Shown here: piece by piece, positions 16,641 through 59,320 of the stretch
Layout: each line of letters opens with the position of its first letter
How positions within the stretch are numbered: the stretch's first letter is position 1
NCBI GenBank assembly: GCA_951406725.2
Contig: OX597817.1
Location: forward strand, 94,612,001-94,676,000
Reading direction: 5' to 3'
DNA length: 64,000 nt
DNA from: Octopus vulgaris
Taxonomy: Eukaryota
Notes under the pieces: generated by a model
Told to the model about the DNA's origin: nothing
Seen by the model: the letters and a program-made list of their open reading frames with translations, nothing else
Database searches by the model: none
Program-made: the position numbers and the translations under genes

Positions 16641-16682
16641 GCTGCATTGAAAAGGGGCAATACCCCGAAACGCGTCTGTAGC
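16641..16682 (+). ncRNA. Minimal type I hammerhead ribozyme, U3-A8 variant (inverted copy)
   Basis: GCTGCA TTGAAAA GGGG CAATA CCCC GAAA CGCG TC TGTAGC. Confidence 0.85.
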
Positions 16683-16912
16683 TGCCGGTCAAGTAGTGTG
16701 GAGCGACTGACCTCCCTTGTTCGAAGGTTATATGGATACAGTTTGTGTATCAAATAGCTAACTTAAGGCGATGGCCTCATGGAGCTAATAAGCGGACAGC
16801 TTTATTCTTATTTTTATAAGAATGTCATATTAGTATGGCGATAACTATTATTTTCCGGAAACGCTGCCGTTGTTCTCTTTTAGAGAGACTTAGTAATTTT
16901 AATATTTCTATT

Positions 16913-17085
16913 ATATATATATATATATATTTATTATTTATATATATATATTTATTATTTATATATATATATATATATATATATATATATAGATAGATAG
17001 ATAGATAGATAGATAGATAGATAGATAGATAGATAGATAGATAGATAGATAGATATAGATATAGATATAGATATAGATATATATA
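16913..17085. repeat. Compound (TA)n/(GATA)n/(GATATA)n microsatellite
   Basis: Seen directly. Confidence 0.95.
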
Positions 17086-17224
17086 CGGGTGTGTGTGATT
17101 GTGTATAGAATAATATATTAATTAAAGGAATTCCAACCTTGTCTGATTTTCACGTTTTATTTACAATCTTATAATGATATAATAAGATAAAATAAAATAA
17201 TAGAATTTAAATGTTCATTCTGAT

Positions 17225-17269
17225 TGAACTAGTACTTTCATGCATTGAATTATGCAATCTTCATGTTCA
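17225..17269 (-). ncRNA. Degenerate hammerhead motif in a PLE pLTR-like fragment (~17110-17450)
   Basis: UGAAC-AUGAAGA-UUGCAU(AAUUCA)AUGCAU-GAAA-GUAC-UA-GUUCA, with C3 replaced by A. Confidence 0.6.
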
Positions 17270-17462
17270 TGTAGTAGTGGTGACAGTCATGCTTCACAAT
17301 TTTTGACTGTAGCGCGATGGTTAAATCTGTGCATTAAATACACCTGCGTGGGCTCCAGATTGCTAGGTTTTGCAAACTGTATTCTGACCAATCAGTGTGT
17401 AGCGTCACTCAATTACTTAAGCTGATTGGTTGGTTTAGGTGTCATGCTTTATATATACATGT

Positions 17463-17770
17463 GGAGGCGCAATGGCCCACTGGTTAGGGCAGCGGACTCA
17501 CGGTCGTAGGATCGCGGTTTCGATTCCCAGACCGGGTGTTGTGAGTGTTTATTGAGCGAAAACACCTAAAGCTCCACGAGGCTCCGGCAGGGGGTGGTGG
17601 TGATCCCTGCCGTACTCTTTCGCTGCAACTTTCTCTCACTCTTTCTTCTGTTGGCCTGCTCGCTTAGCCAGCGGGGTGGCGTCATTTGAAGGCTAAAACA
17701 ATGCGAAGCGCATTGTGACCAGCGGTGTGTAGCAACATCTGATAGCCTGGTCGGTCACGTGATCACGTGA
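17463..17770 (+). mobile_element. tRNA-derived SINE family C, tail type 2
   Basis: GGAGGCGCAATGGCCCACTGGTTAGGGCAGCGGACTCACGG...GGTTTCGATTCCC. Confidence 0.85.
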
Positions 17771-18958
17771 TATATATATATATATACATATATATTCAAA
17801 ATCAACGTCGAAAATAAGTGTATATATCAATGAGAGATTAGCAATGTAGAGCTGTCTGCAACGTTTCGAATTTAAGCGCTACTTTAGAAAGTTAGTAAAA
17901 AATGTAGTGGAAAGAAAGGGAGAAAACGGGATTAAAAGATATACATGTGTTGGTCAGGTTCTATTGAAAATGATAGATTCGAATAACTGGAAGAGATAGA
18001 GTTATGTTTCACATGAACGAGATCAATGGGGTAGAAAACTACAGATACATACATACATACATAAATCATGAAAGTACGTATCTGTGTAGCATTAAGAGGA
18101 GGTAACTGTGAAGAGTATAGATTATGTGTGCTTATGTATATGACTGTGTACGTGTGTATGTATTTGGGTGTGCTAATAAGCCGCATGTTTTGTACTTCTT
18201 CCAATGTTAGTGTGAACTGGAGTAGTACCTGTAGTTGTCCTGGGACAACTTCTATGTGCTTGTCTGCGTATGTGTGTGTGTGTGTGTCTGTGTATGTGAT
18301 TGTGTATAATATAGCAGAGAAGAGGAGTAAAGAGCGATTAGAAGGTAAATATTAGAGAAATTAGATAGAAAGAAAGACATCAAGTGTAAAGGGTAAGTTT
18401 CTTCTACTGTAGTCCCCTATTGACTATTAACTTATGACAGAACGATAAAATCAGTAATGAAATGCAATATGTACTAGGATCGATATAATCGATTAAAACT
18501 TTGAATATGGTACCCAGAATGGCCAGAATCCAGTAACTGAAATCAGTAAAAAACAATAAACAAACAAGCAAACGAAAAAGACGATAAAAAATAGTTCAAT
18601 GTTGCTTTATCATTTCCTGGTTATTGTTTACGCTACGGTTGAGTGCAAGATGCCAACTTATGTTATAATCTGTTGAATCTTTTCACTGGCCTTGATTATA
18701 TCATTACAAGAACTATGTCAGGTGATCATGTTTACATACAGGTCAGTTTCACATAAACAAACAAACAATACAGCCATTGGTACATAATAGCGAAACTCTA
18801 GACAGCTGATAAATCTGCTAGAAATACCAGCCAAATCTCCTTCAAGACATGCCCTACCATATTAGATGATATAGTCTTGGATATGTTATGCCTGATAAAA
18901 TGGGATGGGCTTGATTGAAATGTCTTTTATGAAAGATCTTATCAATCACGGCTGATAT

Positions 18959-57300: not shown

Positions 57301-57700
57301 CTAACAGCATTAGCTTGATCTACTAATCCTTGCACAGTCACTTTTAACATACCCTTCTCTATCTAAAGTGTTAAAATCCGTTTCCTACAGCCCTTTCTTT
57401 TAGGTTCACTTTCTAAGGAGCACTGCATCACTATCCTGTTTTTTTCGATGGTCCACTTCCCCCTCCTTACTCTATCATCTGCTGATGCAGTATTATGATA
57501 ACAGCTGTGGGCAGTCTGCATATTCACTGAACCATTGTCAAGCGAGAGGCCTTTCGTTAAAGGTCCAGCTTCATTTTCGCTGTTACAGCCAGGGTTTCTG
57601 CGGAAACTCTTGTCTCTCGTGATCTGAGGTAAGGTAACGTTCGTTACCAATGTCATCAACACTAATATTTTTCGACATATGATAGTTTCAAGCAAGTTTC
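54400..57700 (-). mobile_element. Near full-length, heavily decayed R4/Dong-type LINE
   Basis: KGSGPDLVQGYWLKKF, NYRPIT, GIFQRDSLSSL, RRGKWT..NRIVM and an RPD motif near 54715. Confidence 0.78.
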
Positions 57701-58505
57701 TATTGCATCATTTGTTGCAGCTCTGTGCTGGTGAGATGGTGTGTGTTGCATTTGTTTTTCTTTTTTTGAGGAAGTAGGAGAGAATATTGTATTGCATCAG
57801 TATGGGAGAATATTGTATTCATCAGTATGTTTTGTTATGGGGTTTGGTTTGAGTTTTCTGTTGTATTAGTTTTTGTATTGTGCTGTTTGTACAGCATAGC
57901 TTGTGTTCTTCTGTTGGGTATCGGACTTCTATGGCATACATAGGCTTTGTTCATTTTGTTGGGTATTTACTGTATGAGTTTATTCATGTATGTTTTTGGA
58001 TGAGCGTTGCTTAGTAGTGTGTGTATATCATAAATCAACTATTTCATAGTATTAATGGTTATCTATCCATCGTTGTTTCTTTTGGGGTTGGTTTTGTTAT
58101 GAGTCCGTCTTTACAGCGTTTACTTTTTAGCAGAACACCGCCCACGGACATGTGTTGATGTTTCTCTAGTCTTTATAATTATTATTGATGTATAAACGAG
58201 GGACCGAGAAGAAACAGCAATTCGCATATATAGAGAGGTATTGTATAAATATGGATATATATGTAATAAAAATTTGAAATTTAATACTTTACTCACAGCC
58301 GAGAGACCGAGAAGAAACAACAATACGCATATATATAGAGGTCTTATATGAATATGGAAGTATTTGTAATTAAAATTTGAAAGTTTTAATTTCACTCACA
58401 GGCTTGGAGTTTTCGTATAGATATATTTTATTGCAGTCTATGTGTCTACATTTTTACGCGCGTGTTGCTTGGCAGTGCATCTGAGGGAATCTATTTTTAT
58501 ATGCA

Positions 58506-58755
58506 CAGGGTTGGCCAAAAGTCACCCGATAGTAAATCAAAATTCCATAAATGCTATCTGTAATTCTGTAAAGACTCGAATGGAAAAATGTTTAGTTCAA
58601 GGAGTTCAGTTTGAACAATTTTCCTGATATTTCATATCCAGATGCTTGTATTAAATTCATTCAGTTGTTAAACATACATAAAACATACATACGTAAATCA
58701 AAACCATGAATTAAATGGTTTTAATTTACTGTCGGGTGACTTTTGGCCAAACCTG
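58506..58755. mobile_element. MITE with ~32-bp TIRs (Tc1/mariner-like ends)
   Basis: CAGGGTTGGCCAAAAGTCACCCGATAGTAAAT / ATTTACTGTCGGGTGACTTTTGGCCAAACCTG. TA on the right flank, CA on the left. Confidence 0.8.
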
Positions 58756-58978
58756 TATGTATATATATGTATATATATATATATATGTATATATATATAT
58801 ATATATATATATATATATATATATATATATATATATATATATATATATATATATATATATATATATTATATATATATATATATGTATGTATAAGGGTGGA
58901 AAGGAACACACGAGTTGATATATATGAAAAAACAAGTCAAAAATAGAAAATGCTAAGATAATTTTATAGTGAATCTTT

Positions 58979-59016
58979 CAGTACCGGTTTCGGTCATTTT
59001 GAGACCTTTTCAACTG
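58979..59016 (-). ncRNA. Minimal hammerhead ribozyme, U3-A8 variant
   Basis: Reverse complement of 59283-59320. Confidence 0.82.
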
Positions 59017-59282
59017 TAACGATTAAATAATTAAATTTAGAAAAATTAGAAGAAAAGTTTTTTTTAAAAGAATATTTCTATAGTAGTGTTCAGATATAAG
59101 TGGCATTCTGCCTTTCTCAGACTCCCTTGTTTGCACTTGTGTGTTCGACCTCGAACACACAAGTGCAAACAAGAGAGTCAGAGAAAGGCAGAATGCCACT
59201 TATATCTGAACACTACTATAGAAATATTCTTTTAAAAAAAACTTTTCTTCTAATTTTTCTAAATTTAATTATTTAATCGTTA

Positions 59283-59320
59283 CAGTTGAAAAGGTCTCAA
59301 AATGACCGAAACCGGTACTG
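59283..59320 (+). ncRNA. Minimal hammerhead ribozyme, U3-A8 variant
   Basis: CAG-UUGAAAA-GGUC(UCAAAAU)GACC-GAAA-CCGG-UA-CUG. Confidence 0.82.

Follow-up and report, generated by a model that had tools for sequence, protein, structure and literature searches.

Three repetitive elements in a 64,000-nucleotide stretch of Octopus vulgaris DNA (contig OX597817.1, positions 94,612,001 to 94,676,000; this whole stretch, numbered from its first letter, is the window below) each carry a hammerhead ribozyme motif with U at position 3 and A at position 8 (U3-A8) in place of the C3-G8 of the canonical CUGANGA core. The window is A+T-rich (28–43% G+C per 2 kb, ~35% overall), and runs of TA, CA and TATG as well as retroelement remnants are abundant in it. 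The three motifs, A, B and C, and the elements that hold them are as follows.

16641..16682, plus strand: hammerhead A, UUGAAAA core at 16647-16653, U3-A8
16391..16432, minus strand: identical hammerhead A, upstream copy of a tandem pair, U3 at 16426
16028..16069, minus strand: identical hammerhead A, downstream copy of the pair, 363 nt from the 16426 copy, U3 at 16063
15859..16914, no strand: element A, between TA runs, non-coding, retrozyme-like
42355..42395, minus strand: hammerhead B, UUGACAA core at 42391, U3-A8, palindrome ACCGGU, U17, weak fold
43715..43747, plus strand: mirror copy of B, stem I lost through two small gaps
42314..43790, no strand: element B, inverted arms of ~680 bp, 98% alike
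59283..59320, plus strand: hammerhead C, UUGAAAA core at 59286-59292, U3-A8
58979..59016, minus strand: mirror copy of C, U3 at 59013
58918..59380, no strand: element C, a hairpin with two arms of ~230 bp, between TA runs

Three U3-A8 hammerheads in separate elements

The full core order U4 G5 A6 N7 x A9 ... G12 A13 A14 is present in A, B and C, together with A15.1-U16.1 and H17, and by this architecture all three belong to the type I hammerheads, each with a palindrome for stem III; self-cleavage is predicted for them. On the plus strand, motif A has a 6-bp stem I (16641-46/16677-82), a stem II of GGGG/CCCC followed by GAA, the palindrome ACGCGU and C17 at 16676, the predicted cut site; plus-strand motif C has a 3-bp stem I, a stem II of GGUC/GACC, the palindrome ACCGGU and A17 at 59317. 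The stem I of B is 4 bp long and its ACCGGU palindrome is perfect, while its stem II stands in the normal register only with a U10.1.U11.1 mismatch at the opening, followed by five pairs including one G.U. Because this opening is common in related elements (32 of the 67 relatives described below), B, like a further motif E, is taken to be in the normal register; a version of B with two extra bases before G12 was abandoned, as relatives show the U.U opening of stem II instead. All three motifs stand in inverted or tandem elements, at 45–235 nt from a TA run that follows them; those of B and C face outwards, at 45–84 nt. The elements themselves, called unrelated in a preliminary description of this DNA, show no significant sequence similarity, the best blastn match being B to C at an E value of 0.18, with nothing at E up to 1 between A and B or between A and C. 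U3-A8 may or may not have arisen separately in each of them. Both arms of element B also hold a 44-bp tandem repeat of ~4.8 copies (42409-42617 and 43472-43683), just upstream of its hammerhead.

The motifs were sought with a descriptor of the hammerhead core order and stems in which positions 3 and 8 are unconstrained, copies inside one element being counted once, as one insertion. Its strict form finds the copies of A and C; B is missed because its stem II opens with the U10.1.U11.1 mismatch, and appears only once the first stem II pair may mismatch. Motif A reaches a score of 34, C one of 27 and B one of 26; motif D, which has a G3-C8 core and is introduced below, reaches 32. The same descriptor, with positions 3 and 8 free, gave 0.17 matches per window at a score of at least 26 and 0.02 at a score of at least 28 in 60 locally shuffled windows. 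The three U3-A8 cores therefore exceed chance, and they stand where the preliminary description had placed them (16647, 59286 and within 42355-42395), with the palindromic stem III of Penelope-like elements (PLEs) that it had also reported. Weaker descriptor matches at 56146, 18501, 63069, 23168 and 5573 were dismissed, their scores being at chance level. As had been anticipated, standard searches miss the motifs: none of the stretches A, B, C and D reaches the Rfam hammerhead gathering score, the best being C with 22.9 bits to Hammerhead_HH9 against a threshold of 52. B scores 11.6 bits to HH9 (best hammerhead E value 2.4), and A and D have no hammerhead match at all. Such sub-threshold scores are expected, because these are variant cores without a loop III. 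A whole-window Rfam scan at E up to 5 gave no hammerhead among the matches listed (150 of 245), which are mostly microRNA-like and on simple repeats.

On these figures B alone is only modestly above chance. It is nevertheless unlikely that B, and possibly D, are chance look-alikes of A+T-rich DNA that leave only A and C as hammerheads. Such a reading would draw on the shuffled-window rate at score 26, on the poor Rfam match and on a fold z-score for B of -0.13. Yet B lies 45 nt from the end of its element and faces outwards, as do C and a motif F described below, its palindrome is perfect, and its U.U opening is typical of Hydra-type motifs; the score of D is above all but ~0.02 matches per shuffled window. 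Probably B belongs to a U3-A8 hammerhead family, as a copy that is weakened or dead.

The state of the core could be followed beyond the window for family A. Element A consists of ~1.6 tandem 363-bp units (minus strand) joined to ~1.3 inverted units (plus strand), and it has the features by which retrozymes are recognised, namely tandem units of 150–450 bp, low G+C, no coding capacity and hammerheads in at least two consecutive units (16426 and 16063). From cut to cut the monomer is 363 nt long, with 41% G+C and a longest stop-free frame of 65 codons, and as a circle it folds at -116.5 kcal/mol against -82.7 +/- 4.6 kcal/mol in 60 shuffles. Among the public runs listed, 20 of 24 (13 studies, seven organism labels) share at least half of the words sampled from the unit, one of them possibly the source of this DNA. 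None of the runs with the unit is recorded as RNA, which speaks neither for nor against its expression. For four runs other than that possible source (at most four samples, three studies), contigs were placed on the unit at 80% likeness and variants were called from a 3% share, so that the test covers contigs at least 80% alike and variants of at least 3%, rare variants dropping out of contigs. The numbers of contigs placed were 3772, 799, 926 and 421, and the core was covered in every run. Since no other letter reaches 3% at position 3 (16647) or position 8 (16652) in any of the four, U3-A8 is the family state of A, not decay.

Only two differences are listed inside motif A and both preserve pairing: G>A at 16644 turns G.U into A-U (~33% of depth in run X2), and C>T at 16664 turns G-C into G.U. 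In run X10 the end of one single contig reads ACAUGU instead of ACGCGU, two changes after which the palindrome can still pair with itself. End-to-start joints from 16909 to 16552, with ~5 letters between, give the 363-bp period in runs X2, X3 and X10.

Pairing at positions 3 and 8 in the window and in relatives

Positions 3 and 8 form a base pair of the active hammerhead fold, in which U-A can replace C-G. The account of the window given in the preliminary description was sound for its three motifs and incomplete for the rest, as four more motif families are present, with G3-C8 (D), C3-G8 (F and G) and A3.G8 (E) cores.

15664..15714, plus strand: hammerhead D, GUGAACA core at 15671, G3-C8, stem I of 7 bp, AAUAUU, U17
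17225..17269, minus strand: hammerhead E, AUGAAGA core at 17264, A3.G8, U.U opening of stem II, AGUACU
34834..34896, plus strand: hammerhead F, CCGAAGA core at 34840, C3-G8 with U4C, one unpaired U before G12
32111-32173, minus strand: mirror copy of F, core at 32167
32074..34933, minus strand: 5'-truncated Hydra-clade PLE with hammerhead F in its 3' repeat
13838..13883, plus strand: hammerhead G, canonical CUGAAGA core at 13843, decayed, found by eye
12858-12903, minus strand: second copy of G, CUAAUGA, decayed, core at 12898

D is a single window copy with an extra G before G10.1, 86 nt before a TA run, and E is probably a decayed C3-G8 copy, otherwise intact and Hydra-like. In all, six of the seven motif families have a Watson-Crick pair at 3-8, against 29 of 99 matches in shuffled sequence (binomial p 0.004 at 0.30), and so do four of the five families whose core is other than C-G (p 0.03).

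The Hydra-clade element provided a route to relatives. Its unbroken 620-aa frame (32358-34220) encodes a reverse transcriptase (RT) followed by a GIY-YIG-type end, and contains FSDKTK (the DKT mark) and CSCRNKELC (the CxCX5C linker), which agree with the Hydra clade and its C-terminal nuclease and 3' hammerhead, the assignment being one of motif marks against the published definition. An inverted 725-bp copy of the 3' end accompanies the element, and given the unbroken frame and arms that are 99.9% alike it is probably young. The 620-aa protein has 666 homologues among 7999 candidates scored, and an alignment of it with 22 homologues fetched 78 loci, the best 78 of 416. The descriptor finds a sense-strand motif in 62 of these (60 C-G, 2 U-A) against 1.1 matches per shuffled set, and inspection of the remaining 16 added four with C-G and one with G-C (locus L014, in both repeats), leaving 11 without a motif. 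Thus 67 of the 78 Hydra-type loci have a motif, with C-G in 64, U-A in 2, G-C in 1 and a mismatch in none. Grouped at 80% likeness, with L039 excluded as lying at a contig edge, 81 motifs form 37 families (34 C-G, 2 U-A, 1 G-C), again none mismatched. Pairs were counted from the descriptor and not from a covariance model because a MAFFT alignment of 17 motifs misregistered the stems.

The two U-A loci sit apart in a quick FastTree phylogeny of 68 proteins and need two changes, in a tree where L009 fills only 32% of columns and joins L014 on long branches. In L014 each of the two repeats of a Hydra-type element has a G3-C8 core (GUGAUCA at 46-74 and 2602-2630, plus strand), and a further GUGAUCA core lies near 2765 on the minus strand of L029, beside another Hydra-type element. 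The combination seen in F, U4C with an unpaired U before G12, was unseen in the relatives, U4C alone occurring at position 907 of L006. Viral contigs contained no relative of the Hydra-type protein; two motif patterns were met there, at 8 and at least 120 loci, and none of 128 passed the descriptor at a score of 26.

Decay offers another account of U3-A8, in which dead CUGANGA copies drift towards A+T by C>T and G>A without any compensation. The base composition of the window (~35% G+C) would favour such drift, both changes are transitions, and visibly decayed motifs do occur in the window (motifs E and G, and B in its right arm). Drift is refuted for A, however, by U3-A8 throughout the four runs; it also predicts more single changes (U3.G8, C3.A8) than double ones, and no single change was found in the seven window families or the 37 related families; G3-C8 would need two transversions. 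We regard it as highly improbable overall. The outcome that the preliminary description had named as fatal to its proposal, a CUGANGA consensus with independent decay, did not occur in family A, the family to which this result applies, and its proposal of selection on the 3-8 pair is borne out by the fixed U3-A8 of A and by Watson-Crick pairing in 37 of 37 related families. These sequence patterns indicate that selection acts on pairing at 3-8 and not on C-G identity, which holds most firmly for A.

A broader generalisation seems to us about evenly balanced: that the 3-8 pair of Penelope-type hammerheads alternates between three Watson-Crick forms, one of them a natural G3-C8 (at 15671, in L014 and on the minus strand of L029), that non-canonical cores may be the majority here (four of seven families), and that CUGANGA counts would miss most ribozymes of an abundant U3-A8 retrozyme, which would give 363-nt circles. 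Descriptors should allow any Watson-Crick pair at 3-8 as well as the U.U opening of stem II, as otherwise abundant families such as A go uncounted in annotation. A natural G3-C8, if true, would complete the natural covariation evidence for the 3-8 tertiary pair.

Further repeats in the window are noted here. The two copies of G flank a frame fragment (13082-13561, minus strand) labelled GIY-YIG-like from a reading of its motifs, within a putative Penelope/Poseidon-like remnant (12806-13934) whose inverted flanks contain the two decayed G hammerheads; another remnant, also RT-like, occupies 11591-12419. Pfam gave no hit for the fragment and no family for any of four PLE frames. A palindromic stub between TA runs (25724-26062) has TTGAAAA in its right arm and no GAAA strand, and is possibly a decayed U3-A8 motif. 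An inverted repeat of 181 bp, 93% alike (896-1076 and 1855-2033), is broken up by other repeats, and a hammerhead was not found in it. Broken non-LTR retrotransposon frames occur at 44457-49465 and 9898-10698, with RVT_1 at 45351-46076 and zf-RVT at 10267-10695.

Predicted folds and cleavage as dimers

A palindrome of 6 nt would be too short for stem III to close within one copy, and an active fold would need two. In the proposed arrangement the palindromes of two copies in a tandem transcript, or of two molecules, would pair with each other and the stem I strands would be exchanged, giving two active sites, and the dimer would cut after position 17, at C17 in A (16676) and A17 in C (59317). 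Successive cuts in tandem A would release the 363-nt monomer, which host ligases would be likely to circularise and a Penelope-like enzyme could then copy back into TA repeats. We consider it probable that A, B and C are type I U3-A8 hammerheads, which Penelope-like retroelements and non-coding derivatives of these likely carry at their 3' ends, and which are predicted to cut after position 17 as two-copy dimers. Their position near 3' ends, the inversions and the TA flanks fit PLEs, and F lies in an element that encodes PLE protein.

Predicted energies are in line with a dimer for two of the three. Two strands of A are predicted to be most stable as the double hammerhead (-34.7 kcal/mol against -28.6 kcal/mol for two monomers), and so are two strands of E. 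For C the double hammerhead has -20.7 kcal/mol, against -22.9 kcal/mol for the best fold and -15.4 kcal/mol for two monomers. Stem I/II pair probabilities are 0.99/0.98 in A, 0.79/0.95 in C and 0.26/0.00 in B. The dimer fold put forward in the preliminary description therefore holds for A, where it is the best prediction, comes within 2.2 kcal/mol of the optimum for C, and fails for B, which is predicted to misfold. Competing folds are better by at least 7 kcal/mol for B, D, F and G, gaps that are overstated for F and the first copy of G, as outer stem II pairs were omitted from the model.

Several observations count against the reading of A, B and C as self-cleaving PLE hammerheads under selection. 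The active fold of B is 7.8 kcal/mol worse than its best two-strand fold and its mirror copy lacks stem I; D and F likewise have better competing folds. The family state was examined in A only of the three, a distant C3-G8 sister family of A (less than 80% alike) would escape the family test, and differences inside motif A (2 places in 42 nt) are not rarer than outside it (19 in 316 nt). Hydra-type queries linked none of A, B and C to a coding sequence, and element B had no match to Hydra-type proteins; because no RT is linked, the Penelope origin of all three rests on architecture. Of published PLE hammerheads, minimal metazoan forms cut slowly or poorly in vitro even as dimers (PMC4209133), catalytic mutants of an Anolis (lizard) PLE hammerhead leave insertion in vitro unchanged, and the RNA-seq reads described for it include none ending at the cut site (PMC11167929).

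These last reports also bear on the possibility that the motifs are real and selected for another role in mobility, for instance as a folded 3' end that the RT recognises, or that cutting is incidental to spread. Besides the Anolis mutants and the low in vitro rates of minimal hammerheads, the spread of Naiad elements without canonical hammerheads speaks for it. Against it, the active fold includes the 3-8 pair, which is Watson-Crick in all 37 related families, and similarly arranged repeats of mussel and coral cleave and form circles (PMC7229834). We rate this possibility as improbable, if somewhat less so than chance resemblance in B, and keep to self-cleavage as the predicted function of the U3-A8 motifs.

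Comparison with known hammerheads and retroelements

The novelty that the preliminary description implied for U3-A8 does not survive comparison with the literature. The natural covariation from C3-G8 to U3-A8 was reported in 2011 by Perreault et al., with its in vitro activity cited, among natural variants that include the U10.1-U11.1 opening of stem II and a U4C tolerated in a viroid (PMC3088659), and Cervera and De la Pena in 2014 reached U3-A8 via a Cercyon PLE and obtained ~1,300 Schistosoma mansoni matches with a U3-A8 descriptor (PMC4209133). The U3-A8 motifs here are new examples of a published variant, and U3-A8, U10.1-U11.1 and U4C are common to the window and the 2011 survey. The section text of that survey, Figure 5 aside, does not list G3-C8, as in D, as a natural variant (PMC3088659). 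G3-C8 is described as a partly active laboratory double mutant (PMC3884650; in a PLE hammerhead, PMC11167929), and the literature searches made found it as a laboratory variant only. The natural G3-C8 core is the fresher point; it falls outside the coordinates of the preliminary description and rests on a single copy in the window and on two loci among the relatives.

The closest counterparts of A, B and C are the minimal PLE hammerheads of Schistosoma mansoni (Sm3 and Sm4, the latter with the same UUGAAAA), which are type I, palindromic at 15-16 and U3-A8 (PMC4209133). Frequent U17, occurrence solo or in opposite-strand pairs 100–700 bp apart and predicted activity as dimers are further likenesses; unlike the shortest forms there, with 4-nt palindromes, A, B and C have 6 nt, and A and C have no extra base before 10.1. 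In a hand count of the 56 example rows of Figure S3 of that paper, 2 have U3-A8, 1 has U3.G8, none has G3-C8 and ~24 have U17, so the U3-A8 share is 2 of 56 there against three of seven families in the window. Dimer cleavage of PLE hammerheads is summarised in PMC6765202.

The element at 32074-34933 resembles the Hydra clade of Craig et al. 2021 (PMC8557442) in its DKT mark, CxCX5C linker, C-terminal nuclease, 3' hammerhead and microsatellite flanks, and differs in its atypical hammerhead (U4C and the unpaired U before G12); no coding sequence ties A, B or C to that element. PLEs are also described as having TA targets and as leaving tandem and inverted copies truncated at the 5' end (PMC8557442). 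Element A is most like the animal non-LTR retrozymes, with its 363-bp tandem unit (350–390 in mussel), its lack of coding capacity, one type I hammerhead per unit and a strongly self-paired monomer, and it departs from them in its U3-A8 core, its inverted part and its TA-repeat site, as in PLE insertion; its circles are predicted ones, whereas cleavage and circles are established for the mussel and coral repeats (Cervera and de la Pena 2020, PMC7229834). A link between retrozymes and PLEs, of the kind that element A would exemplify, has been argued by Li et al. 2026 (bioRxiv 10.64898/2026.07.22.740005).

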